Shown one piece after another: positions 817-36,993 of a DNA stretch of 64,000 bases. How positions within the stretch are numbered: position 1 is the stretch's first letter; each line of letters begins with the position of its first letter. The position numbers were made by a program, and so were the translations under genes. Under the pieces are notes generated by a model. That model did not search any database, had not been told where the DNA came from, and saw nothing but the letters and a program-made list of their open reading frames with translations. Origin of the DNA: Candidatus Ryanbacteria bacterium RIFCSPLOWO2_12_FULL_44_26 (lineage in GTDB: Bacteria; Patescibacteriota; Minisyncoccia; Ryanbacterales; HO2-45-13); assembly GCA_001821765.1 (NCBI GenBank), contig MHOA01000013.1, positions 15,456-79,455 of the forward strand, given 5' to 3'.

Positions 817-2274
817 TCAAATTGTTTCTACCCGATAGAGCGTCAGGAATAACCCCTCAAATAGCGTTTGAGTATTGCGGCTAGAGGGATCATTAAGCTG
901 GAAAAACTTATTCTCAAGGGCATATTGGGAGACGACGAGGAAGCAGGGTTTTTTTAGCATTGTTTTTTCTGTAACGATAATGGGTTTTTGAGGATTTCTG
1001 TAGTAGTTTATCGTTTCATGTGATGGCCAAGAAAATATATACACTGGTATTGCCTCCGATTTTATAAGTTCCCCAATAATTTTTTCTTCCTCGGCAGATC
1101 TGGTAAGACTAGATCCCATAGGCAAAAGCATTGTGCCATGTTCAGTGGGAAAGAAGATCTGTATAACCGTTGCAGTGAAAGCAGTTATGACGAGAGCGGA
1201 GACAGTAATGACAGTCATATACGGCCACCTTAACTTTGCCTTTCTGATCAGTGGTATGCCTGTACTTACTATAAAGAGCGCCATAAACGGAAACAGCGGT
1301 GCAATATAGAAAAAAAGTTTGGACGCTGAACTTCCAAATAGAAACAACATAAAAAGCGCGATGGATAAAGTTGTCAATTGAGCTTTCCTGCGAAAGAAAT
1401 TTCTCCAACCAGTAAGCAAAAAAGCTATAAGTACAATAACAAAAACGGCTGTCCACGGTTCAACAAACTTGATGAGGTGTTTGGTATAGTAAAACGGTAT
1501 TTGCGTTCCTATAACAGGGTTTGCGTAACGGCCTACTATGTTGCTTATTAAGTGGTTCCAGAAACTTTCTCCGTATAGTATGTGTTGCTGAATAAGCCAC
1601 GGGAGCAATATGGCGGTCATCAGCAATATACCAAACCAGAAATATCTGCTTAAAAGCCAATCCCACCTTTGATATATCAGTGAATGAATGAAGAAAAGTG
1701 GAATGGCAAGAAGACCAATAACGCTTTTAAGCAGAACTCCAACGGCAATTCCCATTCCAACGCCAATGTACCATGCCGGCTGATGCACACCTCTTATAAA
1801 TGCGTAGAAAGTAAAAAGAATTGCTGTAGTGACAGGGATATCCATACGTACTTGCCTGCCGCTAAATATAAAAATGGTTGTGGTAAGCAGAATAAAAGCG
1901 GCCCCTAAAGCGACTGTAGGGTCGCGGAAAAGGCGTAGCCCCATAAGCCATGTAAGAATGATCGCTAAGACAATGAAGAAAGCAGATGGGAGCCGGAGCG
2001 CAAGTTCCGTCTCGCCGAATATTCCCACGCTTGCCGCCATCATCCAGAACAGAAGTGGCGGTTTGTCGAACCACGGCTCTCCGTCTTTTGTAAAAGAAAG
2101 TAAATCTTTTCTCTGCAGGCTTTCATGGAGCACCTGCGCATATGTGGCTTCGTCATAGTCGATGAACGCGGAGCTGCCCAACTGAAAAAAAGAAAGAAAA
2201 AGTGCAGTAAGGAGCAATAAAGTGAAGATAAACCTGTAGTGAGTTTCATTTGCTATGTTCATGTCAGTCATCAT
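817..2274 (-). CDS. GT-C fold ArnT/PMT_2-family polyprenyl-phosphate-sugar dependent glycosyltransferase (membrane)
   Basis: About 12 hydrophobic helices. The first-loop motif DYDEATYAQV...DGEPWFDKPPLLFWMM is typical of ArnT/PMT_2. Confidence 0.7.
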   Translation of the reverse strand: MMTDMNIANETHYRFIFTLLLLTALFLSFFQLGSSAFIDYDEATYAQVLHESLQRKDLLSFTKDGEPWFDKPPLLFWMMAASVGIFGETELALRLPSAFFIVLAIILTWLMGLRLFRDPTVALGAAFILLTTTIFIFSGRQVRMDIPVTTAILFTFYAFIRGVHQPAWYIGVGMGIAVGVLLKSVIGLLAIPLFFIHSLIYQRWDWLLSRYFWFGILLMTAILLPWLIQQHILYGESFWNHLISNIVGRYANPVIGTQIPFYYTKHLIKFVEPWTAVFVIVLIAFLLTGWRNFFRRKAQLTTLSIALFMLFLFGSSASKLFFYIAPLFPFMALFIVSTGIPLIRKAKLRWPYMTVITVSALVITAFTATVIQIFFPTEHGTMLLPMGSSLTRSAEEEKIIGELIKSEAIPVYIFSWPSHETINYYRNPQKPIIVTEKTMLKKPCFLVVSQYALENKFFQLNDPSSRNTQTLFEGLFLTLYRVETI

Positions 2275-2405: not shown

Positions 2406-2510
2406 TATGAATTTCGTTTATCAAATAAGCAGCGCACATCCAAGAATCATGTTTACTGGTCATTATAATGTACGGAAATGCATTCAGCATTTCCTATCTC
2501 TAACGGGATG
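2406..2510 (+). repeat. Copy A of a conserved ~105-nt intergenic element (palindromic CATTATAATG, then hairpin GGAAATGC-ATTCA-GCATTTCC, then TATCTCTAACGGG-ATG)
   Basis: About 80-85% identical to 20072..20173 and 48499..48604. It lies directly upstream of the carbamoyltransferase start codon. Confidence 0.7.
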
Positions 2511-4322
2511 AATATTTTAGGAATTTCTGCTTTTTATCATGACAGCGCAGCTTGTCTTGTCCGCGACGGAAAAATTGTTGCAGCCGCACAAGAAGAGCGG
2601 TTTACCAGAAAAAAGCATGATTATTCTTTTCCTCAAAACGCTATTCGGTATTGTCTTAAAGAAGGGGGTCTTTCGGAAAGTGATATAAACTACGTCGCTT
2701 TTTATGATAAGCCATTTTTGAAGTTTGAGCGGATTCTTGAAACATATTTGGAGTATGCCCCCCGAGGTGTTCGGTCTTTTATAAAAGCAATGCCGCTTTG
2801 GATAAAGCAAAAGTTGTGGATTAGGGAGCTTATTCAAAAGGAACTTGCATATAAGAACGAAATTATTTTTCTTGAGCACCACGAATCTCACGCCGCCTCT
2901 GCCTTTTTTCCTTCTCCCTATCAGCATGCAGCGTTTCTGACGATGGATGGAGTTGGGGAGTGGGCTACGTCCAGTTTCGGAGTTGGTGAAGACAATCGCA
3001 TTCGGATTATTGCTGATATCCGTTTTCCCCACTCATTAGGGCTTTTATACTCGGCGTTTACATACTTTTGCGGCTTTAAGGTGAATTCCGGTGAATATAA
3101 ACTTATGGGGTTGGCTCCATATGGAGAAGAGGTTTATAAGGAGCTTATTTTAGAAAAGCTTGTTGATGTGAAGGAAGATGGTTCGTTTCGGATGAACATG
3201 GATTATTTTAATTATCCTTCCGGTCTTAAGATGACAAATAAAAAATTTGAGAAGCTCTTCGGCGGGCCGCCGAGGGCCGCGGAGTCAACGATAACACAGA
3301 GAGAAATGGACATCGCCCGTTCTATTCAGGAAGTTGTTGAGGAGATTGTGCTGCGAATGGGAAAGCATGTGTACAAAGAGACGAAAAAGGAGATGTTATG
3401 CCTCGCCGGCGGTGTTGCGCTAAACTGTGTGGCAAACGGCAAACTCCTTCGTGAAGGGCCGTTTAAGGACATATGGATTCAGCCGGCTGCGGGAGATGCC
3501 GGAGGGGCGGTTGGAGCGGCGCTGCTGGTTTGGTATCAGTATCTCCATAACAAACGTGAAGCCGGCAAAAACGATGCAATGCAGGGGGCGTATCTCGGGC
3601 CTTCCTACAGCAATGATGTTATAAAGCAGTTTTTACAGCAGAACGATATTTCTTTTACAGAGCTTTCAACGGACGAGATTCCGAAGCGAGTCTCCGATCT
3701 TATTGCAGATCAAAAAGTTGTCGGATGGTTCGAAGGGCGTATGGAGTTTGGTCCAAGGGCGCTTGGATCCCGCTCTATTCTAGGAGACGCTCGTTCTGCA
3801 AATATGCAGGAAATTATAAATGTAAAAATTAAATTTCGCGAATCGTTCCGTCCATTTGCGCCATCGGTCTTGGAAGAAAAAGCCGGGGACTATTTTGATA
3901 TTGATCGGCCATCCCCCTATATGTTGCTGGTTACGCCTGTAAAGCATAAGAAGAGAAAGCATATAAGTCCAAGAGATCAACACTTCACGGGGTTTAAAAA
4001 ATTACGGGTAGTACGGTCAGAGGTTCCTGCAGTAACGCACGTTGATTATTCAGCCCGTATTCAGACGGTCTCTCCCGACACAAATCCGCTTTATTACGCT
4101 ATGATAAAGCGGTTTTGGGAAGATTATGGCTGCCCTATTATTATAAATACGTCCTTTAATGTAAGAGGGGAGCCGATTGTTTGCACGCCCCAAGATGCGT
4201 ACAAATGCTTTATGCGCACCAACATGGATTACCTGCTTATGGGAAATTTTCTGCTTGATAAAAAGGATCAAAAACAAATTACGAGCGACAGCGCTTGGGA
4301 AAAGGGGCGCGAGCTGGATTAA
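2508..4322 (+). CDS. NodU/CmcH-family O-carbamoyltransferase
   Basis: N-terminal MNILGISAFYHDSAACLVRDGKIVAAAQEERFTRKKHD is typical of the NodU/CmcH family, and the length is about 600 aa. The start was chosen at MNILGIS, immediately after the repeat element. Confidence 0.85.
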   Translation: MNILGISAFYHDSAACLVRDGKIVAAAQEERFTRKKHDYSFPQNAIRYCLKEGGLSESDINYVAFYDKPFLKFERILETYLEYAPRGVRSFIKAMPLWIKQKLWIRELIQKELAYKNEIIFLEHHESHAASAFFPSPYQHAAFLTMDGVGEWATSSFGVGEDNRIRIIADIRFPHSLGLLYSAFTYFCGFKVNSGEYKLMGLAPYGEEVYKELILEKLVDVKEDGSFRMNMDYFNYPSGLKMTNKKFEKLFGGPPRAAESTITQREMDIARSIQEVVEEIVLRMGKHVYKETKKEMLCLAGGVALNCVANGKLLREGPFKDIWIQPAAGDAGGAVGAALLVWYQYLHNKREAGKNDAMQGAYLGPSYSNDVIKQFLQQNDISFTELSTDEIPKRVSDLIADQKVVGWFEGRMEFGPRALGSRSILGDARSANMQEIINVKIKFRESFRPFAPSVLEEKAGDYFDIDRPSPYMLLVTPVKHKKRKHISPRDQHFTGFKKLRVVRSEVPAVTHVDYSARIQTVSPDTNPLYYAMIKRFWEDYGCPIIINTSFNVRGEPIVCTPQDAYKCFMRTNMDYLLMGNFLLDKKDQKQITSDSAWEKGRELD

Positions 4323-4332
4323 ATAATGTATC

Positions 4333-4749
4333 ATGACTTATAAACAACTAAAATACATGTCGGGGGACAGAAAAGATTTAAGAAAATTCGGCATCACCAT
4401 CGGTGTTGTGTTTATGATGCTTGGGGTGTTATTTTTTTTGAAAGGCGGGCACAACGCAGTGTATCTTCTCTTTTTAGGAGTCGTGTTCACCGTGCTAGGA
4501 GTTACAGTCCCGCTTTTGTTAAAACCTTTTTATAGAATATGGATGACCGCAGCGGACATGCTCGGCCAGCTTGTTACAGGCATCATTTTGTGTATTCTGT
4601 TTTATATAGTGATAACCCCTCTCGGCTTTATTGCAAAACTTTTAGGCAAGCATTTTGTTGATCTGGGGTTTTACGTTAAGCAAGAAAGTTACTGGAATTA
4701 TAAGGAGCAAAAAGAGTTGGTAAACAGTGACTATGAACGGCAGTTCTAG
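4333..4749 (+). CDS. SxtJ-like small membrane protein (carbamoyltransferase-associated)
   Basis: 138 aa with 3-4 TM helices. Size and position match the sxtI-sxtJ-sxtK arrangement, directly downstream of the carbamoyltransferase. Confidence 0.45.
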   Translation: MTYKQLKYMSGDRKDLRKFGITIGVVFMMLGVLFFLKGGHNAVYLLFLGVVFTVLGVTVPLLLKPFYRIWMTAADMLGQLVTGIILCILFYIVITPLGFIAKLLGKHFVDLGFYVKQESYWNYKEQKELVNSDYERQF

Positions 4750-6013
4750 AAAAAAGATTTTCGTTGCCGGATCGGGTGTTTTTTTTATACTGGTCGGCCT
4801 TTTTTTAAATGAATGGCTTATTGCTTCCTGGTTTACTTACAGTGGCGCTCTTTCAGTAAAAGATCGCATTGCGGTTTGGATATTTGACATCTTGATGGTG
4901 GGGATGGGTGTTCTTTTGATTGTGTTGAGGGGGCGGGTTCATTTAACATTTGATAAGAAAAATTTTGCGCTATTTGTCGGCACTGTTGTATTTTTGTTTG
5001 TGCTTAGCGAGTTTTCCGCTCGGGTCATTGACCGTCTGCATGGAGGAGATTTTACCTATAACAAGGAACGTAATGAACAACAGCTTACACCGTTTCGAAT
5101 GTTCGGTCCTTCCTATTACGTGGAACAAGACGGCATAAGATATATTTCCAGTGTTCATAAGGAGCTGTACCCGTTTGAGAAAGGCAGGAACACCTATCGT
5201 ATTGTGGCATTTGGAGGGTCAACAACACAGAATGCAGTTGACGGGATACATTACCCCCTTGTTTTGGAACAGCTGCTTAAGGAGGAGTATCCTCAAAGAA
5301 ACATTGAAGTTATTAACATTGGCAATTCTGCTTATGCCACGCCCCATTTTATTATATCGCTTACGCTTGATGTAGTTTCATGGGAGAGTGACCTTATTAT
5401 TTTGAGTGAAAATATTAATGACCTCCTTGCTGGATATTTTCCTGACTTTCAACCTGATTATGCCAACAAATACAGGCATGCGGCATTTGTCCCGGAGATT
5501 TCAGCCCCCCGTATGTTATTGGGATGGTCGCGATTTTACTGGATAGTGAAGAGTCGCCTGGAAGCTTTGTCGTATCGTCTTGCTGACTATGGAGGCGTTG
5601 TTTTTAGACGCAGTTCCTATGGCAATGAGCCGCCGGTGGAAAGCCAGAAAATCTTCCGTCGCAATCTTCAAACGTTTGTTGAAATTGCGCGCGCCTATGA
5701 TATTCCTGTGGTACTGGGGACACAGCCGCTTGAAACGTCTGAGGAATATTGGAATCGCCATATGCGGTATAAGAAATACAACGGTATTGTTACTTATCCG
5801 CTGCACTCGGAGTTCATATCTCATCATCAAAGATTTAACGAAATTATTAGGGAAGTAGCGCGTGAGCAGAAGGCATATATCGTTGATAATGAAAAGATAT
5901 TTGCAGGAAAGAGCGTATTCTTTATTGATTTTGTGCATTACAGCAAAAAAGGGCTTGAGCAACTCGCTCGGAACTATTATAATGTTATTGTTTCCAACAA
6001 GTTCGTTCGCTAA
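4727..6013 (+). CDS. SGNH/GDSL-family hydrolase with N-terminal membrane anchor
   Basis: SGNH blocks are present: IVAFGGSTTQN (block I Ser), NIGNSAYAT (block III) and IDFVHYS (block V DxxH). N-terminal TM helices. Confidence 0.5.
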   Translation: MTMNGSSRKKIFVAGSGVFFILVGLFLNEWLIASWFTYSGALSVKDRIAVWIFDILMVGMGVLLIVLRGRVHLTFDKKNFALFVGTVVFLFVLSEFSARVIDRLHGGDFTYNKERNEQQLTPFRMFGPSYYVEQDGIRYISSVHKELYPFEKGRNTYRIVAFGGSTTQNAVDGIHYPLVLEQLLKEEYPQRNIEVINIGNSAYATPHFIISLTLDVVSWESDLIILSENINDLLAGYFPDFQPDYANKYRHAAFVPEISAPRMLLGWSRFYWIVKSRLEALSYRLADYGGVVFRRSSYGNEPPVESQKIFRRNLQTFVEIARAYDIPVVLGTQPLETSEEYWNRHMRYKKYNGIVTYPLHSEFISHHQRFNEIIREVAREQKAYIVDNEKIFAGKSVFFIDFVHYSKKGLEQLARNYYNVIVSNKFVR

Positions 6014-6101
6014 TCATTTGCGAATGTTATTATGACAAATACTTTCCAAAGCGGCATTCGTAACTATGTGAGTTTCATCAGAAACTAATGTGAGATCTTT
6101 T

Positions 6102-6260
6102 ATGTCAAAACTTTCCATTATTAAGGAACTTTGGGAATTTTTGCGAATTCGCAAAAAATGGTGGCTTGCGCCAATTGTTGTTTTTTTGGTCCTGCTCGGA
6201 GTTCTTATTGTCCTTACGGAGGGGTCGGCGGTAGCGCCGTTTATCTATACGTTATTTTGA
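6102..6260 (+). CDS. SxtK/DUF5989-like 52-aa membrane peptide (absent from the ORF track)
   Basis: Manual translation gives MSKLSIIKELWEFLRIRKKWWLAPIVVFLVLLGVLIVLTEGSAVAPFIYTLF. This family of ~50-aa peptides is characteristically found with carbamoyltransferase and SxtJ genes. Confidence 0.6.
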   Translation: MSKLSIIKELWEFLRIRKKWWLAPIVVFLVLLGVLIVLTEGSAVAPFIYTLF

Positions 6261-7093
6261 AACTTTTTGAATCCCCGAGAAATTCGCGCGATGTTGAACT
6301 CAACAATAAACCATCCTTTTATAACGTTTTCCACTGCGATAAGAAACAGCAAGACACCAAAAACCAAGGTAAGCCATGAGGTAAGCGGGTAGAACATGTA
6401 GTCAAGCAGGGTCAGTCGTTCAAACATCATAACGGCTCCCAAAACAAGAAGGATGATAAAAAATTCCTGGGTAAGGTGAAAAAGACGAGCGGGGATGTCA
6501 AACAGTTCCGGTTTCTCAAGGTTCCCATCAATGTCACCGTTTCCGTGTGTTGTGTTTGGAAGAAAGAAAAGCTCGGGGGATTTTATGTATTTTTTGATAA
6601 AGATCAGTTGCGATAAGCTGTTGGTTATTCGAATGACTATGAAAGAAAGCGCTGCTGTGACGCCTCCTATGTAAAGAAAAAGATCCGGTACCACTGTAAA
6701 CGGCGGCATCCCAAATGTGAAGCTCAGGAAAAAGACAGGAGGAATGATCAGATGATTTATTTCGTCTAGATAGATGCCTTTTAGTGACGCCCTTTTTTTA
6801 TATCTGGCTACTTCACCGTCGACCCTGTCAAGCAATGTGTGTACATATAAGGCCGCGATTCCTGTTATTTTTAACTCCCAGCTATCCTGGAAAACAAATA
6901 CGCACCCCACAATGCCCATAAGCAAGGCCGTTATGGTAATTTGGTTTGGGGTTATGGGGAATAACAGCAAAAAACGGGTTATGTAGATAGAGGGGCCACG
7001 CTGGAGGGTTTTATAACCAAATGGTCGTGACCATCCTTTTGGATGCACTTTTTCTTCCTGAAGCATTCTGCGTAATTCTTTAATTGACTCCAT
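6245..7093 (-). CDS. CDP-alcohol phosphatidyltransferase-family membrane protein
   Basis: LLDRVDGEVARYKKRASLKGIYLDE approximates the D-x2-DG-x2-AR...G...D signature. Multiple TM helices. Confidence 0.45.
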   Translation of the reverse strand: MESIKELRRMLQEEKVHPKGWSRPFGYKTLQRGPSIYITRFLLLFPITPNQITITALLMGIVGCVFVFQDSWELKITGIAALYVHTLLDRVDGEVARYKKRASLKGIYLDEINHLIIPPVFFLSFTFGMPPFTVVPDLFLYIGGVTAALSFIVIRITNSLSQLIFIKKYIKSPELFFLPNTTHGNGDIDGNLEKPELFDIPARLFHLTQEFFIILLVLGAVMMFERLTLLDYMFYPLTSWLTLVFGVLLFLIAVENVIKGWFIVEFNIARISRGFKKFQNNV

Positions 7094-7171: not shown

Positions 7172-8914
7172 TCATATATAAACTTTATTCTTTATTGAAC
7201 TAAATATCATATTTAAATTTGTTTTGTTATTTGTGCTTTGAATTTTGGATTTACTGTATTCATCTAGGATATCAAGAAGTGATTGCTGGGGTTTCCCATT
7301 GCTTCGCTGGATTTCTTCAATATGACGTACTGCCGTTGCAATATCTTTCTCTATCTCATAATAATATATTGCAAGATTTTCGTGGATAGGGAGGTAATGC
7401 GGGTTAAATGTTAATGCTTTTTCCCACGTGTCTCGTGCGTCCTCGAACCGGCCGAGTTTTAAAAAATAAAGAACGCCAAGGTTAAGATATGTATCGCTAT
7501 TGTATGGGTTTTTGGACAATTCCTTTTTAAATTCTTGTTCCGCCTCTTGAAAGCGGTTTGTGTAGTAATAAACAAGTCCGAGGTTGCCGTGAAGCACCTG
7601 TTCATCCGGATTTAGGGCGATGCCTTTTAGATACATCTCCTCGGCTTTATCATATATTCCCTTTTCCAGGTAAACGCTTCCCAGCCCGCTAAATGCTCTA
7701 GGGAGCGTGGGCGCGGTTTTTACCGCATGTTCCCAAAATTGCAGCCTATTTTTAAAGTTTTGGCTGTGTCGGATTGTAAGGAATGAGAAAACAAGGATAA
7801 GCAATACAATTGCTGCCGCAACACCGTGCTTTTCTGGTTTTATATTTTTTATAAAATCTATTTCCATAAGGATAATAAAAAGTCCTATCAGCGGAAGATA
7901 TATTCTGTGCTCGTAGAAGATGGGGGTCAACGATGGATCGTCTGTGAAAAACGAAGGCAGAAGAAAAACAAAAAACCACGCCGCGCCAAAGATAAGAAAT
8001 GGATATCGTTTTTCTTTGGAGAAAAACAAGAATAAAAGAACAAGAAGCATCGCGACCACTCCGTACATGAGCGTTGTATTTCCGAGCGTTGGCATTGCTG
8101 AAAGGTTAAACGGAAAGAAAATTTTCCCAACATAAAGCAGGATGGCGGGCGCATGTTCGACCATCGCTTTTATAATCTTAAATATTGGAAAGGCCGAAGC
8201 GCCGAGTGCCGCTTTTCTTGCGGCAAACCATATCAGCGTGAGGAGCAGCCATCCTGATGCGGGCCGGAGCAGACGGGCGTGCGCGTTTTTTATCCGCGCA
8301 ATCCCGTATGTGTAGAAGACTGCAAGCGGCAGAAAAAAAAGCGTTGACTCCTTCGTAAAAAGGGCTAAAAGATAAAAGAGCATGGAAACCGTATAGTGCT
8401 TCCACGTTGCAGTGTTTACATATCGGATGAAAAAGATGAATGCCAAAAGGATAAAAATCGTAAGCAGGCTGTCGTTTCTTCCGGGCAGCCATCCAACAGT
8501 TTGGGTGAGGATCGGGTGAGCGACAAATATGAGCGAAAAAAGAAGCGCAAGAGCTCGCTTGTATTGCATTGTTATAAGAAAGATGAAAAGCACGCTTGAA
8601 GCTGTAAGATGCAGGAGTATGTTTATAAGAAAATGCGGAAACGGAATTGCAGTGTTGCTAAAAAGCGCCCCGGCCATAAATGATACCGTAAGCATCGGAC
8701 GATAATAGGCAGACCGGTCAGTGGGATATAATATATCGTGCCTGAAAAACTGTAATATATTTGCAGGTTTGTTTAAAAAATGAAGGTTATGATGAATGAG
8801 TTTTGTGTCGTCGAAATAAACAAAGTCAAACGTCATGACAGGAGCATACATAATCCCTCCCAGCAACAGAATCCAAAGGAAAGGAAGATACCCTTTAAGC
8901 AGTGTGTGTTCCAT
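7172..8914 (-). CDS. TMTC-like GT-C glycosyltransferase fused to C-terminal TPR repeats
   Basis: N-terminal polytopic domain with FDFVYFDD (DD catalytic-loop motif). The C-terminal ~200 aa are TPR-like (AFSGLGSVYLEKGIYDKAEEMYLKGIALNP...). Confidence 0.6.
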   Translation of the reverse strand: MEHTLLKGYLPFLWILLLGGIMYAPVMTFDFVYFDDTKLIHHNLHFLNKPANILQFFRHDILYPTDRSAYYRPMLTVSFMAGALFSNTAIPFPHFLINILLHLTASSVLFIFLITMQYKRALALLFSLIFVAHPILTQTVGWLPGRNDSLLTIFILLAFIFFIRYVNTATWKHYTVSMLFYLLALFTKESTLFFLPLAVFYTYGIARIKNAHARLLRPASGWLLLTLIWFAARKAALGASAFPIFKIIKAMVEHAPAILLYVGKIFFPFNLSAMPTLGNTTLMYGVVAMLLVLLFLFFSKEKRYPFLIFGAAWFFVFLLPSFFTDDPSLTPIFYEHRIYLPLIGLFIILMEIDFIKNIKPEKHGVAAAIVLLILVFSFLTIRHSQNFKNRLQFWEHAVKTAPTLPRAFSGLGSVYLEKGIYDKAEEMYLKGIALNPDEQVLHGNLGLVYYYTNRFQEAEQEFKKELSKNPYNSDTYLNLGVLYFLKLGRFEDARDTWEKALTFNPHYLPIHENLAIYYYEIEKDIATAVRHIEEIQRSNGKPQQSLLDILDEYSKSKIQSTNNKTNLNMIFSSIKNKVYI

Positions 8915-8917
8915 GTG

Positions 8918-10351
8918 TTAATGTCCTTTTATAGAAGCAAGCGGCCTTATATATGCCAATGGTTGTATTATACCTTCCTGCTCAAACGCGCGCGTTACCT
9001 CAAAAAGTCCGTCCGAGTAGGTATGCGGAACACCTTTGAGTTTTTTTTCTTTGCGTTTTGAAATCAATGTTTGATGTAAAGGGTCTTTGGTGCTTTTCTT
9101 TTCATGTACATATCTTTCTATTGTTTTTGCGGCGCTTGGGGAAAGAGAATGAAAAGAAGACGTGATATTATTGCCCCCAACTCCAATATAGGAAAGTGTG
9201 TTATTGCTTCCGGAAATCATAACGGGTTTTTTAGAAAAGATGCGCATCGCATCTTGTCGGTGTACGATCAATTGTTGACCATCAATATATTCTTCAATAA
9301 TTGAATTATGCGCAGCATCCCAAAGAAACGATACCTTTGGGGCCTTTTCCGGCAAGCTTTCTTCCAAAGCGTCGATAAGACGCCGCAGTAGCGCTACGCG
9401 ATATCCGTAACCATAGTTCATTGCCGCTTTTATGGAGTGCAAAAGGCGTTTTCCTTCCTCGGTTTCCACCGGAATTTCCGGAAATGCTCTTGAGCTGAAA
9501 TAATATTTCCAGCGCTCCCGAAAGTGTTTTAAGCCATTTGGGTAGCCAAAATGAAAGATACATTTTAAGAAAAAAAGCGCGAATTTTTCTGATGTTTTAT
9601 TTTTTTTTCTATTGGCGAAATAGCGGCCTAAATGATAAGTGGCATGCCCCCCGCCGCCATGATAAAAAAACAGAAGCTGATTCTGCTTTATGTTAAATCG
9701 TTCCGCAAGCGCCTTGTCTTTAATAGTTTCAACATAGTGCAGTTCAAGAAAGTGGTTTCCCCCGAAATTATATCCCATTTCATGCTTGGCGTTTCTGTAA
9801 GAAGAGCGCGGGATGAGATGTTTGAGATTCAGGTTTTTCATTTCTTCGTTTGTAAAAAGAGAGCCCCCGTATTCAATATTTTCCAGTTCGCTTTCAGGGA
9901 GATTGTATTTTTTTGTTGCTGCTTTGGCGCCATGGACAAAAAAATCCTCTAATTCTGACTCTGTAAGGTCGTACGGGAGAAACGGTCGTTCTTCAATACC
10001 GATCCAGTTGAGAAACGTTTGAAACTTCCCGATTCTTTGGGGCACATGTATTCTTAAACGGCGCGCAAACATCACGAAAAATTCCGGCGAAAAGTCTTCT
10101 TTAAAAAGGGATGTGGTAAAAACAGACATGCCGCAATTAAGAGAGGGGGCCGAAAGCATCGGGACGATTGTTTTTTTAGTTGCTGTTACAAACTGGGGAG
10201 GAGATTCTAAACCCTCCTTTTTGTGGATATTCGGAAGGCAGATTGGAGGATAAGCAAGACTTTTGATCTTTTTTACGCGCTGCAATTGTTCACGGATGTA
10301 CGGGTCGGTGACTTTGTCGCAACCAAAGACCATGTCCATAAAAATTTCCAA
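8918..10351 (-). CDS. Divergent RtcB-family (RNA 3'-phosphate ligase-like) protein, paralog 1
   Basis: Conserved RtcB blocks are present: NCGM (GCGM), GNHFLELHY (GNHFIEI), FFYHGGGGHATYHLGRYF (HSGSRG...YF), AAHNSI, VHRQDA (RKGA) and the terminal ...IKGH. Two motifs deviate: PNIH in place of PDxH and FHSLS in place of HGAG. Confidence 0.5.
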   Translation of the reverse strand: MEIFMDMVFGCDKVTDPYIREQLQRVKKIKSLAYPPICLPNIHKKEGLESPPQFVTATKKTIVPMLSAPSLNCGMSVFTTSLFKEDFSPEFFVMFARRLRIHVPQRIGKFQTFLNWIGIEERPFLPYDLTESELEDFFVHGAKAATKKYNLPESELENIEYGGSLFTNEEMKNLNLKHLIPRSSYRNAKHEMGYNFGGNHFLELHYVETIKDKALAERFNIKQNQLLFFYHGGGGHATYHLGRYFANRKKNKTSEKFALFFLKCIFHFGYPNGLKHFRERWKYYFSSRAFPEIPVETEEGKRLLHSIKAAMNYGYGYRVALLRRLIDALEESLPEKAPKVSFLWDAAHNSIIEEYIDGQQLIVHRQDAMRIFSKKPVMISGSNNTLSYIGVGGNNITSSFHSLSPSAAKTIERYVHEKKSTKDPLHQTLISKRKEKKLKGVPHTYSDGLFEVTRAFEQEGIIQPLAYIRPLASIKGH

Positions 10352-10387: not shown

Positions 10388-11815
10388 TCATCCTTTAAAC
10401 ACCGCTATTGGCCGCAGTTTTACTACCGGACGAGCAATACCTGCATTTTCCAGCTGTTGTACAACATAATCGACCCCTTCATTTGTAATGTGGTTTACAA
10501 TCTTTTGAAATGGCGGATGTGACTGGTAAATAACCGTTTTATATTTTTTGGGGTGAGTCGTTGTGTTATTTTTCTCCATCATTTTTTTTATTGTGGTGCC
10601 TGCGCCGTGATCTGATGAGAAAAGGTGCCGCTCGGCGTTTTGCATGCCGACCGCAATGTAGGAGTTGGTGTTGTTAAAACCAGATATAATAAGGGGTTTT
10701 TTGTCAAAGACACGATTTGCGGTATGCCGGTGCACAATAACGTTTTTTCCAGAAACGATTTCTTCGGTGATGGCGTTATGCGCGCCATCCCAAATTAAAC
10801 TCACCGTTGGTGTAGCAGGCGCCGCTTTGCCGAGACTGTCAATGATGCGTTTTATAATAGCCATGCGAAAACCATAGCTGTAATTGAGAGACGCCTTCGT
10901 TGCCATAAGAAGGCGTTTTCCTTCGGGTGAATTCGCAGGAATTTCCATAAAACGTGAAGAAAAAAAATAGTACCGAAGACGCTTTGGAGCATATTTCCAT
11001 TCCAAAGGGGAACCAAAGTGGAAAAGCGCTTTAAAAGCAAGTAGGTAGAGTTTTTGTGATGCCGTGTTTTTCTTTCTATTTCCAAAGTAGCGTCCTATAT
11101 GGTAAGAAACAGCGCCGCCGCCACCGTGATACATAATCACGATTCGATTTTTCTCCAGCCCCCATGCTTTTGCCAGCTTTTCGTCAAGCAATTCCTCAAT
11201 ATATTGAATTTCAAGAAAGTGATTTCCTTTAAACCCATATCCGATATTATGTCTCCCGGAGCGGTAAGAAACCCTTGGGAGGATTTTTTTTAAGTTTAAA
11301 CCGGCCAGTTCCTTTTTTGTAAAAAGCCCGCCCTCATATTCCACTTGTTTGAGGAAATCTGCCGGAAGGCCGTATATTGCTACAGCCGTTTTTGCTCCGT
11401 GTTTTATTATTTCTATAAAATCTCTTACAGAAAGGTCGTAGTGCATTTTCGGCCGCTCAATCAATCCAAACCAGTTAAGCATATTTTTTATTTTCCCGTA
11501 GTTTGGCCCCAACTCCGTTTGCATTGAGCTGTAGAAGCGTTCAAGAAACTGTTCAGTAATTGTTTCTTTTGAGATGGACGTAATAAGCGCCCCCATGCCG
11601 CAGCCAACTGACGGCGCTGTCAGTTCGGGCACTATGGTGTTTTGTGTCGCCGCTGCAAACGAGCAGGGACCCTCGGTGCGTTCTTTCATATGTAGATCTG
11701 GAAGGCATACGACAGGAAAAGCGAGACTCTTGAGTTTTGTAATGTGCGACAAAACACCTCGAATGCGGTTGTCTGAAAGATCACAGCCGAGAGAGTGAAT
11801 TTTAGAGGAATCCAT
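10388..11815 (-). CDS. Divergent RtcB-family protein, paralog 2 (canonical motifs better preserved)
   Basis: LPDLHMKE (PDxH), VGCGMGA, GNHFLEIQY, MYHGGGGAVSYHIGRYF, GAHNAI, VHRHTA, SSDHGAGT (His-nucleophile motif) and terminal AVFKG. Roughly 40% identical to paralog 1. Confidence 0.55.
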   Translation of the reverse strand: MDSSKIHSLGCDLSDNRIRGVLSHITKLKSLAFPVVCLPDLHMKERTEGPCSFAAATQNTIVPELTAPSVGCGMGALITSISKETITEQFLERFYSSMQTELGPNYGKIKNMLNWFGLIERPKMHYDLSVRDFIEIIKHGAKTAVAIYGLPADFLKQVEYEGGLFTKKELAGLNLKKILPRVSYRSGRHNIGYGFKGNHFLEIQYIEELLDEKLAKAWGLEKNRIVIMYHGGGGAVSYHIGRYFGNRKKNTASQKLYLLAFKALFHFGSPLEWKYAPKRLRYYFFSSRFMEIPANSPEGKRLLMATKASLNYSYGFRMAIIKRIIDSLGKAAPATPTVSLIWDGAHNAITEEIVSGKNVIVHRHTANRVFDKKPLIISGFNNTNSYIAVGMQNAERHLFSSDHGAGTTIKKMMEKNNTTTHPKKYKTVIYQSHPPFQKIVNHITNEGVDYVVQQLENAGIARPVVKLRPIAVFKG

Positions 11816-12947: not shown

Positions 12948-14279
12948 ATGAAAAAGGACATTCTTATCGTTGTATGCATTGCATTTGTGTTACGCCTCGC
13001 TTTTTCTTTTGTCGTGGCTGAGCGTGTGGGACCGGGCGCTTTTGAGGATGTACGGCCGATGAGTGATGCAGGACAATACATTGCTCTTACAAAGAATATA
13101 TTAGACAATCAGACGTTTACACTTTACGGAGAGCCGCACAGTTTTCGCACTCCCGGTTATCCGGCCTTTCTCGCATTTTGGTATTGGTTAAGCGGCAGCT
13201 GGTTTTTTAGTGTTGCAGTAGTGGGAAGCGCTTTGGGAGCCTTGAGTGCCGGTGTTACATATATCATTGGAAGAGAACTTTTTTCCCGCACTGTTGGTTT
13301 GCTGGCCGGAGCGTTTTTTGCATTTGAACCATATGGAGCGCACATGGCGGCGCGTCCCATGACAGAATCTGTTTACACAATACTTGTTGCGCTTCTCGCA
13401 TTTTTTATTGTTCGGTTTTACCGTTCTTCCTCAAAGCGTGCGGTGCTGTATATTTTCCTTTCAGGATTAGTTGTGGGGCTTGCCGTTTGGGTAAGGCCGC
13501 AACTATGGCCGTTTTATGTGTTCCCAATGACACTGGTTGTTTTTCTTACTTCCAGAAACGTTCATCAAGCCAAAACTGCCCTTCTGTCAGCAGTACTGTT
13601 CATTGGTGTCGCGGCGCTTGTTATTGTTCCATGGATTGTCCGGAATGCCGTGCTGTTTGGTGAGCCGTCCATAAGTTCCCAAGGTGGATGGAATCTCTAT
13701 TTTTATCACACAAAACGTTTTACCGGATCAGAGCGTTTCTTTGGTTTAGAAAACGATGAAATAAGGCGATTTTTGGAAATACGTCTTGGAAAGCCCGGAC
13801 CTGATGATATTCGAAGTATTGTATACCAGCCGATTTATTATACCGAGGCTTTTAACATCATTTTACAAAGGCCCGCATCTTACGCTTTTTGGCATATCAA
13901 AGAGTCGCTGGTGTTTTTTTATGATGATGGCATAAGAGATGTGCTTCGGCATATGGGCGCGGAATCTTCTTTTACGTTTGAGAGCATATCAGCAGCGCAG
14001 ATACTAAAATCGCCAACAGCTCTTTTGGCGTTGGGAGGCGTTGCTTTTTGGATAGGAGTATTTTTGCTTGCCGGATACGGCGCATGGCAGGGAATATGGA
14101 AGGGAACTCCTGTAATCAGGTGTGCGACCATTTTTTTTCTCTTGACTATTCTTTATGTGCCGTTTGTTGCTGGCACTCTTGCGGTGGCTCGTTTTCGCTT
14201 TCCATTGACGCCAATGATATTTCCGCTTTTTGGCTTTGGGCTTTGTATGTTATGGGAAAGATTAAAATGGGCCGTTTAG
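12948..14279 (+). CDS. GT-C fold ArnT/PMT_2-like glycosyltransferase (membrane)
   Basis: Polytopic. The first-loop motif MSDAGQYIALTKNILDNQTFTLYGEP is ArnT-like. Confidence 0.65.
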   Translation: MKKDILIVVCIAFVLRLAFSFVVAERVGPGAFEDVRPMSDAGQYIALTKNILDNQTFTLYGEPHSFRTPGYPAFLAFWYWLSGSWFFSVAVVGSALGALSAGVTYIIGRELFSRTVGLLAGAFFAFEPYGAHMAARPMTESVYTILVALLAFFIVRFYRSSSKRAVLYIFLSGLVVGLAVWVRPQLWPFYVFPMTLVVFLTSRNVHQAKTALLSAVLFIGVAALVIVPWIVRNAVLFGEPSISSQGGWNLYFYHTKRFTGSERFFGLENDEIRRFLEIRLGKPGPDDIRSIVYQPIYYTEAFNIILQRPASYAFWHIKESLVFFYDDGIRDVLRHMGAESSFTFESISAAQILKSPTALLALGGVAFWIGVFLLAGYGAWQGIWKGTPVIRCATIFFLLTILYVPFVAGTLAVARFRFPLTPMIFPLFGFGLCMLWERLKWAV

Positions 14280-15028
14280 AAAAAAAAATAATTGCAGTAC
14301 TCCCCGCTTATAACGCGGAAAAGACGCTCAAGAGAACGTTCTATGACATTCCAGAGGATTGGGTGGATGATGTTATTCTGGTGGATGACGCCAGTCGGGA
14401 TAAAACCGTTGAAGTGGCAAAAACGCTTCCGATCCGCACGTACGTTCATCCAAAAAATCTTGGCTATGGAGGAAATCAAAAAACGTGTTATCAAAAAGCA
14501 CTCCAGCTCGGTGGGGATATTATTGTGATGATTCATCCAGACCACCAATATGATCCCCGTCTTGTTCCGGAATTACTCAAGCCCATTGTTGAAGGGAGGG
14601 CTGACGCGGTGTTTGGATCTCGCATGATACGCAGAGAAGATGCTTTGAAAGGAGGGATGCCTCATTGGAAGTTTGCGGCAAATATTTTACTTACGAAAAT
14701 TGAAAATGTTGTCTTAAGACTTCATTTAACGGAATATCATTCCGGTTTTAGGGCATACAGCAGGAAAGTGCTTGAAACGGTGCCATTTAAAAAAAACTCT
14801 GATAATTTCGTTTTTGATACGGAGATCATCGTGCAAATGAAGCTTGCTGGACTGCGTATCATGGAAATTCCGATTCAAACGCGGTATTTCCCCGAGGCAT
14901 CAATGATCGGATTTTCAAAAAGCGTTCAATACGGTATTTCAATACTTTATGTGATGATAAAGTATCTTGTGCACGTGATGGGGTTTAAAAAGATCAGCCA
15001 GTTTGTCATAAAACATGACAATAAGTGA
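14267..15028 (+). CDS. GT2 polyprenyl-phosphate sugar synthase (DPM1/ArnC/GtrB-like)
   Basis: IIAVLPAYNAEKTL...VILVDDASRDKT...GSRM. The 5' extension at 14048 in the track is a read-through overlap; the start was set at MGRLEKK. Confidence 0.8.
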   Translation: MGRLEKKIIAVLPAYNAEKTLKRTFYDIPEDWVDDVILVDDASRDKTVEVAKTLPIRTYVHPKNLGYGGNQKTCYQKALQLGGDIIVMIHPDHQYDPRLVPELLKPIVEGRADAVFGSRMIRREDALKGGMPHWKFAANILLTKIENVVLRLHLTEYHSGFRAYSRKVLETVPFKKNSDNFVFDTEIIVQMKLAGLRIMEIPIQTRYFPEASMIGFSKSVQYGISILYVMIKYLVHVMGFKKISQFVIKHDNK

Positions 15029-16748
15029 TGGACAAAAACTGCAACGGCACATACGATACGTTTTTCTAGCGTTCACTGTTGTTATTGGCGGAATCCACGC
15101 ATATGCTGCGCGCAACAATATGAATCCGGACGGAATTTCTTATCTTGACATAGCAGAAGCGTACATTCGTGGGGAATGGGATTTGGCGATTAACGCTTGG
15201 TGGAGTCCGTTATATTCATGGATATTGGGTCTTGCGCTTTCTTTGTTCCATCCTTCCGCTTATTGGGAATTTCCTTTGGTGCATGCCGTAAATTTTGTAA
15301 TTTATATTGCCGCCTTTGGAAGTTTCTCTTTTTTCTTGCATGAGTTTATACGTGCGCTTCACAAAAATGGTCAGGAAGCGCACGCAAACAACAAACCGAC
15401 GCCCCTGCCGGCATGGACGCTCGCTCTTATAGGATACACGCTTTTTCTCATAGCCTCTCTTAATTTGATCACTATTTCTCTTGTAACGCCTGATATGCTT
15501 GTTTCAGTGTTCGTATATTTCGCCGCAGGGCTTATCGTTCGCATGCGCAGAACCGGGGCCAGCTGGACCTCATTTATATTGTTGGGGATAGTGCTGGGTT
15601 TTGGGTATCTTGCCAAAGCGCCCATTTTTCCTTTGGCGTTTGTATTTTTTGCTTCAAGCATTCTGGTTGTCGGCAGTTTTCGAAAAGCGCTTCCTAAAGT
15701 CTCAATCAGCGTGTTCTTTTTTCTTCTTATTGCCGCTCCTTTCGTGTTTTTTTTATCGGAAGTGAAGGGGAAACCCACCTTTGGGGAAAGTGGAAGGATA
15801 AATTATGCTTGGTATCTCAATGGTCCGGCCGAACACATTCACTGGCAGGGCGGGCCCGAAGGCCGCGGTGTTCCTACTCATCCGACAAGAAAAATTTTTG
15901 ATTCCCCAGCGGTTTACGAATTTGGATCGCCAATCGGCGGCACCTATCCGCCGTGGTACGATCCTTCGTACTGGCACGAAGGCATTACGCCTTATTTTGA
16001 TTTTAACGCACAACTATGGACGCTTTATAAAAGCTTCAATGCTTACTATGATATATTTTCAAGAGCGCATACAGTGCTTTTTTTGGGCTTTATCTTTTTC
16101 TTGATTGTCGGCGGCGTTCGGCCGTTTCTCAAAAATGCTAAAGATCAAGTCGTTATCCTGCTCCCGGCCCTTTCGGCGCTCGGAATGTTTGCGCTTGTCT
16201 TGGTAAAAGACAGGTATGTTGCCCCATTCATAGTTTTGTTGTGGCTTGGGGTGTTTGCGGCAGTGAGAGCATATGATTCTGTACTATCACGGAACATAGT
16301 GAAAGGATTGGTCGTTGCTATGGTCGTTGTTATGATGGCGGCTGTTTTTATATCAAGTGTGCCGGATGCATTAACAGCTGTCCGTGACATTGTAAAAAGT
16401 AGAGATGCATTCAGGCACATTCATTGGTATGTTGCCCAAGGGCTCGATCAGAGAAATATTCAAGCCGGGGACAAAGTTTCAGTTATAAGCCACCATGTAA
16501 ACGGTCTTACTGCTTATTGGGCGCGTTTGGCGAAAGTTCAAATTGTTTCGGAAATACCATCGGAGGAGGAAAGAACATTTTGGGCGAGTGATGATGCGCG
16601 CAGGAATCAGATTTTAAACTTATTTGTGAAAACAGGTGCAAGGGCCGTCATAGCGGAAAACGTACCGGACCCCTATACGCGGCCGGAGTGGAAAAACATT
16701 GACGGTACGAGTTATTATATTTACCTTTTATCTACCGAGAAAGATTAA
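15015..16748 (+). CDS. Large polytopic membrane protein, probable GT-C fold glycosyltransferase
   Basis: About 14 TM helices. The N-terminal loop DGISYLDIAEAYIRGEWDLAINAWWSPLYSW resembles GT-C first-loop architecture. Confidence 0.45.
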   Translation: MTISDGQKLQRHIRYVFLAFTVVIGGIHAYAARNNMNPDGISYLDIAEAYIRGEWDLAINAWWSPLYSWILGLALSLFHPSAYWEFPLVHAVNFVIYIAAFGSFSFFLHEFIRALHKNGQEAHANNKPTPLPAWTLALIGYTLFLIASLNLITISLVTPDMLVSVFVYFAAGLIVRMRRTGASWTSFILLGIVLGFGYLAKAPIFPLAFVFFASSILVVGSFRKALPKVSISVFFFLLIAAPFVFFLSEVKGKPTFGESGRINYAWYLNGPAEHIHWQGGPEGRGVPTHPTRKIFDSPAVYEFGSPIGGTYPPWYDPSYWHEGITPYFDFNAQLWTLYKSFNAYYDIFSRAHTVLFLGFIFFLIVGGVRPFLKNAKDQVVILLPALSALGMFALVLVKDRYVAPFIVLLWLGVFAAVRAYDSVLSRNIVKGLVVAMVVVMMAAVFISSVPDALTAVRDIVKSRDAFRHIHWYVAQGLDQRNIQAGDKVSVISHHVNGLTAYWARLAKVQIVSEIPSEEERTFWASDDARRNQILNLFVKTGARAVIAENVPDPYTRPEWKNIDGTSYYIYLLSTEKD

Positions 16749-17445
16749 AACGGATGATAGCGAGAACTGCTTTTACTCCATCCCACCAGTTAATTTTTTT
16801 CCCTGCACTGCGATCTCTCGGGTTATAGGTGATTGGCACCTCATATATTTTCCAAGGGCCTTTGGCTGCTTTAGCGGTGAGTTCTGGTTCTATCCCGAAC
16901 CGCTTGGATTTTAATTTGAACGATTGAATAATATCACGCCTGAATAACTTATAGCACGTTTCCATATCTGTAATGTATATGCCGCTAAAAATATTGGAGA
17001 GCATCGTAAGAAAACGGTTTGTAAGATACCGATGCGTGCGGAATACTCTCCTTGTTCCCGTCATTTGGAATCTGGAGCCGAAAACAATATCGGCGCCATA
17101 TTTTTCGAAAGGCTCAAGAAGTTTTGGATATTCGTAAGGGTCTGTTTCAAGATCCGCGTCTTGGATGATGACAATGTCCCCAGAAATATGCGAAAGCGCT
17201 GTTCTAATCGCTGCGCCCTTGCCCTCGTTTGTTTCTTTATGGATAATTTCCAGCCCTTTTACATAAAGAGAAGGTTTTTCTTTCAACTTCTTTTCAATGC
17301 CGTCTAGAATTGATTTTGTGCCGTCAGTGGAGTTGTCATTGACGATGATCACCTCCTTTTTTATGGGAACAGCAAAAACGGTTTGAACAAGTTTTTCTAC
17401 CGTCCGCTCTTCGTTGTAGACGGGTATAATGACTGAAATCAGCAT
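16732..17445 (-). CDS. GT2 polyprenyl-phosphate sugar synthase (DPM1-like)
   Basis: MLISVIIPVYNEERT...IIVNDNSTDGT...IIQDADLETDP...VFGSRF. Confidence 0.8.
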   Translation of the reverse strand: MLISVIIPVYNEERTVEKLVQTVFAVPIKKEVIIVNDNSTDGTKSILDGIEKKLKEKPSLYVKGLEIIHKETNEGKGAAIRTALSHISGDIVIIQDADLETDPYEYPKLLEPFEKYGADIVFGSRFQMTGTRRVFRTHRYLTNRFLTMLSNIFSGIYITDMETCYKLFRRDIIQSFKLKSKRFGIEPELTAKAAKGPWKIYEVPITYNPRDRSAGKKINWWDGVKAVLAIIRFNLSR

Positions 17446-20050: not shown

Positions 20051-20071
20051 ATCCTGTTAGAGATCCAAGTT

Positions 20072-20173
20072 TTATGAATTTCGTTTTTCAAATGAGCGGC
20101 GCATATCCAAGAATGATGTTTACTGGCAATTATCATTCACGGAAATTTCCGATTTCCTATCTCTAATATAATG
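20072..20173 (+). repeat. Copy B of the conserved ~105-nt intergenic element
   Basis: TTATGAATTTCGTTTTTCAAATGAGCGGCGCATATCCAAGAATGATGTTTACTGG...GGAAATTTCCGATTTCCTATCTCTAATATA-ATG. The hairpin is shortened to GGAAAT/ATTTCC. Confidence 0.7.
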
Positions 20174-29970: not shown

Positions 29971-29985
29971 ACGACATATTATAAC

Positions 29986-30693: not shown

Positions 30694-30870
30694 GTTTATT
30701 TAACGCGTGAATACTTGTCTGCTGTTTTGGGTGTATCAAAGTGAAGGGTTGTCATCGAATAGGTGTTATCTTCGAAAAAGCGGTTTTTTTCGGATTTGGT
30801 TCCATGCCATGTCTTATTAGGACTTTCCGAATTTCTTCCGCAGCCCTTTTAAGACAGAGTGCATTGAAAC

Positions 30871-36984: not shown

Positions 36985-36993
36985 TTTGCGTAT

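Follow-up and report, generated by a model that had tools for sequence, protein, structure and literature searches.

Why would a small-genome, non-photosynthetic bacterium of the Candidate Phyla Radiation (CPR) carry, amid genes for glycan assembly, a set of genes that resembles a block of the saxitoxin (sxt) clusters? The question arises from a 64,000-nucleotide stretch of contig MHOA01000013.1 of Candidatus Ryanbacteria bacterium RIFCSPLOWO2_12_FULL_44_26 (hereafter the window, in whose numbering positions are given). A preliminary description of this DNA had noted a carbamoyltransferase (CT) gene followed by genes for a polytopic protein (J), an SGNH hydrolase and a 52-residue peptide (K), and four open reading frames (ORFs) do lie where it placed them, the translation of the peptide being exactly as quoted. 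We find that the genes for the CT, an SxtJ-family protein, the SGNH hydrolase and a DUF5989/SxtK peptide form one operon (2478 or 2508 to 6260, plus strand), and that its CT-J-K core is a widespread, self-contained cassette to which an SGNH gene has been added here, in a minority of lineages and, as sxtL, in sxt clusters. The function of SxtJ and SxtK was already called unknown in 2009 (PMC2679770), if not before. In reviews and in a preprint of 2026 they are only hypothesised to work with SxtI, and the literature up to 2026 holds no demonstrated function for either, as the preliminary description had also stated. No paper found in our literature searches mentions DUF5989, and those on Sinorhizobium meliloti and on glycan carbamoylation contain nothing on J or K.

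The four genes are considered a single transcription unit because they are tightly packed on the plus strand and bracketed on both sides by minus-strand genes. The CT stop codon is followed after 11 nt by the start of J, and the J and SGNH genes overlap by 17 nt. Divergent from the operon is a gene for an ArnT/PMT_2-type GT-C glycosyltransferase (817-2274, minus strand; PMT_2 84 bits), which scores 85 bits against the NCBIfam ArnT model, under the cut-off of that model. Convergent with it is a gene for a CDP-alcohol phosphatidyltransferase family protein (6245-7093, minus strand; Pfam CDP-OH_P_transf 35.6 bits), whose 3' end runs 16 nt into the DUF5989 gene. Simple scans for promoters and terminators remained near chance: 12 promoter-like sites were found where 8.1±2.1 would be expected, and for terminator-like sites the number was 6, with an expectation of 4.4±2.1. 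All four genes of the operon have Pfam matches above the curated cut-offs, and proteins identical to the CT, J and SGNH products are on record from metagenome-assembled genomes (MAGs) of Candidatus Ryanbacteria (Parcubacteria/CPR) from Rifle groundwater, under GenBank accessions OGZ42275-77.

The first gene (2478 or 2508 to 4322, plus strand) is assigned to the O-carbamoyltransferases of the SxtI/TobZ/GdmN type by its Pfam matches, PDB relatives and motifs. Public gene calls start it at 2478 (614 residues); the ATG at 2508 (604 residues) is likely the true start, since the sequence MNILGIS found there matches the Pfam profile from position 2. A Kae1/ASKHA-like N-terminal domain (Carbam_trans_N, PF02543, 362.9 bits for a cut-off of 24) is followed by a YrdC-like C-terminal domain (Carbam_trans_C, PF16861, 245.2 bits for a cut-off of 27). 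The protein aligns over its full length with 7xb6 (E 1e-97), GdmN (8e-90), NovN (9e-88) and TobZ (2e-77), and its translation contains HHESH, a metal-binding HxxxH motif, and FGPRALGSRS. The GPRALG(R)S motif has been cited as the putative catalytic site of SxtI (bioRxiv 10.64898/2026.06.11.731795). The CT is not a NodU orthologue, as it scores 142 bits against NCBIfam NF041651, for which the equivalog cut-off is 1000. Judged by homology, it belongs to the O-carbamoyltransferase family of the solved TobZ and GdmN. TobZ-type enzymes use carbamoyl phosphate and ATP to form carbamoyl-AMP and then transfer the carbamoyl group to a hydroxyl. The window CT presumably follows the same chemistry as TobZ, GdmN and NovN, since the full-length alignment, the two-domain architecture and the HxxxH and GPRALG motifs are common to them.

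The median identity of this CT to those of 61 J/K-linked loci is 63.5%; for both the CT and K, such conservation between phyla is unusual. Its C-terminal domain contains a basic insertion of 22 residues, KRKHISPRDQHFTGFKKLRVVR (3951-4016, plus strand), which was recognised from gaps in phmmer alignments with homologues, the solved 7xb6 and GdmN being gapped there. The pattern M[ST]..E...LFG[IL][DE]KL.V.RS is present in nearly all of 51 aligned CTs from DUF5989 loci. The insertion is thus a marker of the clade of J/K-linked CTs. We hypothesise that J/K or the acceptor might make contact with the CT there; that the insertion acts as a docking element or a lid is a guess. A 517-residue protein of a representative library, P0304, in which Carbam_trans_N (residues 3-339) is fused to an SxtJ domain (394-488), hints at a physical association between the two partners.

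The second gene (4333 or 4357 to 4749, plus strand) encodes a polytopic membrane protein of 138 residues, or of 130 if it starts at the ATG at 4357 as in public gene calls. Its membership in the SxtJ family, proposed in the preliminary description, is accepted by the Pfam model PF19588 (41.3 bits, cut-off 24.4, model positions 1-95 of 99), and UniRef names an identical protein 'SxtJ'. The family is large: an exhaustive profile search yielded 12,206 representatives at 50% identity, nearly all of them stand-alone proteins of about 137 residues, where a word-indexed search with J returned 6 proteins. By BLASTP with the window J, a homologue was detectable in 58 of the loci described below, with a median identity to the window of 34%. 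Conserved features are LRKFG before the first transmembrane helix, LKP..WM, TR, TP.G, SYW and a C-terminal YE.QF. Two clear transmembrane helices are followed by a 40-residue hydrophobic stretch with the conserved TR and TP.G, and SYW and YE.QF lie in the charged tail at the end. Lys and Arg abound in the N-terminal tail (3.4 such residues on average) as well as in the C-terminal one (7.7), which suggests that the two tails lie in the cytoplasm and that a hairpin is formed by the third hydrophobic stretch. An AlphaFold2 model from a 5-sequence alignment has three helices, with a predicted local distance difference test score (pLDDT) of 71.6 that is moderate only, and Foldseek found no fold match to it below E 1.9.

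At the end of the operon, the 52-residue single-pass membrane peptide (6102-6260, plus strand) is likewise accepted by its own Pfam model, DUF5989 (PF19451), with 92.9 bits for a cut-off of 27 and E 1.2e-26, over positions 2-49 of the 49 in the model. The ORF table gives 56 residues from a GTG at 6090; the family consensus starts at the ATG at 6102. A word-indexed search found homologues in at least 7999 clusters at 90% identity, and at least 587 matches were found in contigs representing one genome per species. The 80 best of these matches come from Nitrospirota, Omnitrophota, KSB1, Ignavibacteria, Brocadia, Desulfobacterota, Gemmatimonadota, Planctomycetota, Myxococcota, SAR11, other Proteobacteria, Actinomycetota and more; the phages that we searched contain no DUF5989. 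Identity across phyla is 62-83%, with a median to the window peptide of 71% that is skewed upward because the loci were chosen by similarity to K, and 25 of the 52 positions are invariant among 24 homologues picked from many phyla. Comparison of the window with 75 loci gave proportions of nonsynonymous (pN) and synonymous (pS) differences of 0.19 and 0.84, with synonymous sites saturated, which shows that the frame is under purifying selection. The Pfam score, the number of homologue clusters and the pN and pS values led us to reject the idea of a chance or spurious ORF. We also considered that K might itself be the substrate, as a carbamoylated peptide resembling ribosomally synthesised and post-translationally modified peptides (RiPPs). 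The cores of RiPP precursors are normally hypervariable, and with K about 70% identical across phyla this idea was discarded. The peptide consists of an amphipathic N-terminal helix, conserved and with RKKWW at its end, one transmembrane helix and the conserved tail EGSAVAPFIYTLF; the RKKWW motif and the positive-inside rule place its N terminus in the cytoplasm.

Contrary to its three neighbours, the exact window peptide has no accession or name on record, and it is probably unannotated in the Ryanbacteria GenBank records. To this extent the preliminary description was right to call it unannotated, but homologues are named by the RefSeq Prokaryotic Genome Annotation Pipeline (PGAP), as 'DUF5989 family protein' for K and 'SxtJ family membrane protein' for J. 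Neither family is new, both having Pfam entries (PF19588 and PF19451) and PGAP names, and the window copy is an ordinary member. At about 50 residues, DUF5989 proteins nevertheless represent a systematic annotation gap in several public records. The gene is present yet uncalled in a second Ryanbacteria lineage (L083/L084, 8277-8432), in a gammaproteobacterial MAG (L088, 6111-6266), in the Rhodobacteraceae SC52 plasmid pSC52_3 (L096, 8001-8147) and in most S. meliloti pSymB records of PLSDB (NC_003078.1, 484411-484563).

How regularly J and K accompany a CT was determined in 80 loci, the most similar to the window K of the 587 or more matches, with one genome per species. They are not a random sample, and the counts rest on ORF-level hidden Markov model (HMM) matches with crude gene calls. 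Both a CT and a J gene lie within 5 kb of K in 55 loci, a CT only in 4 and neither in 21; for the 49 loci with at least 4 kb on both sides, the corresponding numbers are 37, 3 and 9. In those 55 and 37 loci, the three genes are contiguous on one strand, and the synteny of the small ORF thus holds in most related loci. With I standing for the CT, the gene order is of the I-J-K type in 45 of the 80 loci, J-K-I in 7, K-J-I in 2 and K-I-J in 1; I-K without a detected J accounts for 4, and K without I or J for 21. That the adjacency survives this shuffling suggests selection for proximity itself. The I-J-SGNH-K order is also found in the second Ryanbacteria lineage. Overall, the cassette occurs in hundreds of species, with CT identities of 54-71% across phyla. 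Kellmann et al. reportedly noticed in 2008 that sxtJ and sxtK homologues adjoin carbamoyltransferase genes.

Cultured, tractable bacteria are among the hosts of the cassette. It is found on pSymB of S. meliloti ABS7 (L094, 6800-11002) and of S. meliloti 1021, in the latter at about 483-487 kb with K at 484,411-484,563, and the S. meliloti CT is 58% identical to that of the window (700 bits). On a plasmid of Planctomyces SH-PL62 (L095, 5600-8719), CT, SxtJ and DUF5989 genes are followed by a sugar O-acetyltransferase gene and adjoin exosortase and EpsI genes. As for the loci with K only, no single alternative partner emerged among their neighbours, which include a family 2 glycosyltransferase (GT2), Wzy_C with tetratricopeptide repeats (TPRs), an exosortase, SGNH with TPRs, an SSF symporter, MatE and BatA. 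The location of some such genes beside GT2, Wzy_C, exosortase or SGNH-SSF genes indicates that K may serve partners besides the CT. A trio without CT or SxtJ, in which K is directly followed by an SGNH and then by an SSF (sodium:solute symporter) gene, is present in an Actinomycetota MAG (L013, 3389-6808) and recurs in a KSB1 MAG (L033, 8001-12155). The SGNH proteins of the latter and of L058 have C-terminal TPRs.

The third gene of the operon (4733-6013, plus strand, with an upstream GTG at 4727 in the ORF table) encodes a membrane-anchored SGNH/GDSL hydrolase of 426 residues (Pfam Lipase_GDSL_2, 37.3 bits, cut-off 32.9). S163, N229, D230 and H402 do not vary among 66 homologues, and D399 hardly does. 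Its AlphaFold2 model (pLDDT 92) has an SGNH fold preceded by three N-terminal transmembrane helices at residues 3-24, 42-67 and 75-102. The top Foldseek matches are carbohydrate (acetyl-)esterases such as Axe2, PatB being a weaker one. The distribution of charges predicts that the catalytic domain faces the outside of the cell.

This gene alters the comparison with the saxitoxin clusters. The preliminary description held that the first, second and last genes mirror sxtI, sxtJ and sxtK, in effect treating the SGNH gene as an interloper. The sizes do agree: the CT, J and K genes measure 1815-1845, 393-417 and 159 bp here, and sxtI, sxtJ and sxtK 1839, 405 and 165 bp (PMC2679770). However, sxtK is followed by sxtL, a gene of 1281 bp (PMC2679770) for a GDSL lipase that the saxitoxin literature proposes to be a decarbamoylase, and the window SGNH gene is also 1281 bp long. 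All four genes of the operon therefore have sxt counterparts, the SGNH hydrolase being the positional and size counterpart of SxtL, as judged from equal gene length and shared neighbourhood. SGNH genes are found near K in at least 17 of the 80 loci, in varied gene orders. When seven close homologues of the window SGNH protein were chosen by sequence alone and then checked for context, those of three of the seven sampled lineages adjoined CT, J and K, each time in another order: I-J-L-K in Ryanbacteria, J-K-I-L in Krumholzibacteria and L-I-J-K in a gammaproteobacterium. The order in Rhodobacteraceae SC52 is J-K-CT-SGNH, and on S. meliloti pSymB the SGNH gene is divergent from J-K-CT.

What the cassette might act on is suggested by its surroundings. 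According to Pfam scans, the window is a long glycan-assembly island, with family 4 glycosyltransferases (GT4), GT2, at least four PMT_2 GT-C enzymes and nucleotide-sugar enzymes. Small GT2 genes of the polyprenyl-phosphate-sugar synthase-like type and PMT_2 GT-C genes form repeated pairs (817-2274, 12948-15028, 16732-17445 and 18548-22185), and at least four GT-C paralogues fall within 22 kb, which implies that lipid-linked sugars are used for several steps of glycosylation outside the cytoplasm. No other sxt core family (the polyketide synthase (PKS)-like sxtA, the amidinotransferase sxtG, or sxtB/D/S/U/H/T) is among the families reported for the 64-kb window, an absence that is not exhaustive for 24-64 kb, where the scan reported the 25 most frequent of 59 families. 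Elsewhere, the flanks of the cassette in about 55 genomes comprise 135 genes, which include 13 of GT4 type, 10 GT2, 6 GT9 heptosyltransferases, 6 methyltransferases, 4 PMT_2, 3 Wzy_C, 3 nucleoside diphosphate-sugar dehydratases and 2 exosortases. The flanks are enriched for glycosyltransferase and other glycan genes, and the preliminary description was correct in stating that the cassette recurs in non-toxin contexts. Its proposals of a membrane delivery of carbamoylated glycans and of an SGNH enzyme acting on the same glycan are what we, too, infer from this context.

We tentatively favour, at a little short of even confidence, a model in which the CT is kept by J and K at the membrane, where it carbamoylates a lipid-linked sugar or glycan, and an outward-facing SGNH domain edits the exported product. 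SxtJ, with three to four membrane helices and tails that are probably cytoplasmic, and K, with its N terminus inside and one transmembrane helix, would together form a membrane platform to which the soluble, cytoplasmic CT binds. The surrounding GT2, GT4 and GT-C enzymes would build the acceptor, a sugar or glycan bound to the membrane and probably linked to polyprenyl phosphate, and the many GT2 and GT-C pairs of the window would make such substrates plentiful. After export, the SGNH domain might remove or relocate a carbamate or ester on the same glycan. It is tempting to extend this model to an ancient machine for envelope carbamoylation, made of CT, SxtJ, DUF5989 and an optional SGNH protein, in which J and K would represent a new class of membrane adaptors that recruit a soluble, ATP-dependent tailoring enzyme to lipid-linked sugars, the CT insertion would be their dock, the 52-residue peptide would be the best-conserved part, and from which, as a cassette of primary metabolism, sxt clusters would have co-opted I-J-K-L; we regard this extension as rather doubtful.

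Several observations weigh against the platform model. No experiment has been reported anywhere on the role of J and K or on their binding to the CT, and P0304, the only fusion of its kind on record, has no CT C-terminal domain and might result from a deletion or an assembly error. The cassette lies apart from glycan genes in Krumholzibacteria, in a gammaproteobacterium and in S. meliloti; such lone cassettes fit a common substrate made elsewhere but give no direct support for a glycan acceptor. Nine of the 49 fully flanked DUF5989 genes (about 18%) have no CT or J gene within 5 kb. The accessory role put forward in the preliminary description is thus overstated for the peptide, which is not strictly tied to the carbamoyltransferase. 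The SGNH part of the model meets its own difficulties. About 80% of the cassettes have no SGNH gene, and four of the seven sampled SGNH homologues are found away from the CT-J-K trio, two in glycan clusters, one beside a non-ribosomal peptide synthetase (NRPS) gene and one among oxidoreductase genes. The S. meliloti SGNH protein has no BLASTP similarity to that of the window, so different SGNH subfamilies are used and the association with the cassette is optional and at the superfamily level. Lastly, saxitoxin intermediates are soluble, a poor fit to a purely membrane-substrate role.

This last point would be accommodated if J and K instead modulated the CT, as regulatory or chaperone-like subunits that stabilise, activate or gate it, in which case the acceptor need not be membrane-bound. 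The saxitoxin literature treats SxtI, SxtJ and SxtK as acting 'in conjunction', one review tabulates J and K as 'regulatory', and the tight CT-J-K linkage fits any obligate partnership. Nevertheless, we find this proposal unlikely: J and K are both integral membrane proteins with strongly conserved transmembrane parts, which would not seem necessary simply to activate an enzyme of the cytosol, and K also occurs without a CT. Alternatively, J and K might together form a small, oligomeric flippase or exporter of 3+1 helices that carries the carbamoylated lipid-linked sugar or small product to the side of the membrane on which the SGNH enzyme and the GT-C transferases act. ArnE/ArnF and GtrA are small four-helix lipid-sugar flippases with which J and K compare in overall size and number of helices. 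The many GT2 and PMT_2 pairs of the window need flipped polyprenyl-phosphate sugars, the SGNH domain is predicted to be extracytoplasmic, and the hydrophobic region of J contains a conserved Arg. Yet neither Pfam nor Foldseek (E of at least 1.9) indicated similarity to any transporter in sequence or fold, and K is most conserved in its soluble N-terminal helix and C-terminal tail rather than on a pore-lining face. As sxt clusters have separate MATE exporters and the window its own Polysacc_synt flippase (27902-29188), a transport role appears quite unlikely to us.

Two further explanations would assign the operon another kind of product. In one of them, the CT would load a carbamoyl or acyl group that J and K pass across the membrane to the SGNH enzyme, which would attach it to a polymer outside the cytoplasm, much as in O-acetylation by PatA/PatB, OatA or AlgI/J/X. 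Such a relay is suggested by the combination, in one operon, of an enzyme that activates the donor in the cytoplasm with membrane proteins and an SGNH domain that faces outward, by the frequent direct adjacency of SGNH and K genes, by the K-SGNH pairs without CT (L013 and L033), by the PatB match of the window SGNH and by a faint AlgX-like match of that of S. meliloti. However, it cannot be the general role of J and K when most cassettes have no SGNH gene. Known relays use MBOAT or AT3 proteins of 8-11 helices, none of which is encoded in the operon; the best structural matches of the SGNH protein are esterases, and K has no conserved nucleophile accessible from the cytoplasmic side. We hold this explanation to be highly improbable. 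We would give still less credence to the notion that the operon serves to modify not an envelope glycan but a small molecule, for instance a natural product like the saxitoxin alkaloids or a compound of the aminoglycoside type. TobZ, GdmN and NovN, the characterised relatives of the CT, as well as SxtI, do act on secondary metabolites, and two SGNH homologues lie in NRPS- or oxidoreductase-rich neighbourhoods. But glycosyltransferases and nucleotide-sugar enzymes dominate the Pfam families reported for the window, among which there is no sxt core, PKS, NRPS or amidinotransferase; the host is a small-genome CPR bacterium, and the occurrence of the CT in hundreds of species across phyla, at its level of identity, points to a common substrate that is not lineage-specific.

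What is new here is the reading of the locus as four genes including an SxtL-like SGNH hydrolase, the quantification of synteny and context, the clade-specific CT insertion and the presence of the cassette in tractable hosts. SxtJ and SxtK are not toxin-specific: DUF5989, with its thousands of sequence clusters, is found in most bacterial phyla, including the CPR, usually with a highly conserved CT and near envelope-glycan genes. If the adaptor model were true, O-carbamoylation of surface glycans would be far commoner than recognised, with a bearing on phage-host recognition and on the reading of glycan mass spectra. As the cassette resides on pSymB of the tractable S. meliloti 1021, the question of J and K can be tested directly.

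The rest of the window contains other features of the glycan island. The Polysacc_synt flippase gene and a glycerophosphotransferase gene (32479-33636) adjoin a row of minus-strand genes (29299-32190) for a DUF4956 protein (29299-29970), a VTC-domain protein (29986-30693) and a CotH kinase-like protein (30871-32190). A phosphonate biosynthesis module (35374-39253, plus strand) comprises genes for a phosphoenolpyruvate mutase fused to a nucleotidyltransferase domain (35374-36984), a thiamine pyrophosphate-dependent decarboxylase (36994-38127) and an Fe-alcohol dehydrogenase (38120-39253), which suggests phosphonate decoration of a glycan in this Ryanbacteria genome. Two tandem, divergent RtcB-family paralogues (8918-10351 and 10388-11815, both minus strand) match Pfam RtcB (145 bits and E 1.7e-48), both far under the NCBIfam equivalog cut-offs, and such RNA-ligase-like proteins are oddly placed amid glycosyltransferases. 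A 580-residue protein (7172-8914, minus strand) has a long polytopic N-terminal part without a family match and C-terminal TPRs, and a 577-residue ORF (15015-16748, plus strand) has no Pfam match.

Among known systems, PatA/PatB, OatA and AlgI/J/F/X resemble the operon in that neighbouring genes provide for a donor in the cytoplasm, a component in the membrane and an SGNH domain outside the cytoplasm. They differ from it by their large MBOAT or AT3 membrane protein, whereas Pfam detected no MBOAT or AT3 family in the operon, where the sole membrane partners are the tiny J (138 residues) and K (52 residues). The donor chemistry here would be an ATP-dependent carbamoylation, and most J/K cassettes have no SGNH gene. 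A putative precedent for a carbamoyltransferase acting on an envelope glycan is WapO (PA5005), assigned to the core heptose of Pseudomonas lipopolysaccharide (LPS) and encoded, like the window CT, among glycosyltransferases, in a core cluster whose table lists no J or K genes (PMC8005017). The GT9 heptosyltransferases, 6 of the 135 genes flanking the cassette in other genomes, offer a further parallel with WapO. LPS synthesis is not known from CPR bacteria.

GdmN, NovN and TobZ are the nearest characterised relatives of the window CT, and together with 7xb6 they share its two domains and motifs over a full-length alignment. The scores of these solved enzymes (262-331 bits over about 600 residues) are much lower than that of the S. 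meliloti CT, and 7xb6 and GdmN do not have the insertion that is kept in the J/K-linked clade. Partners of the SxtJ or SxtK kind are not known for any of the four. Of all known systems, the sxtI-J-K-L block comes closest: it has the same four types of proteins and near-identical gene sizes, and its SxtJ and SxtK gave rise to the Pfam models that J and K pass. The window J is a distant member at only 41 bits, and the likeness of the CT and SGNH proteins to SxtI and SxtL is one of protein type, gene size and neighbourhood. The two systems also differ in the order of genes, I-J-L-K here, in the glycan-assembly context and in the non-photosynthetic CPR host. All in all, the saxitoxin pathway appears to have borrowed its I-J-K-L block from the cassette, rather than the reverse.

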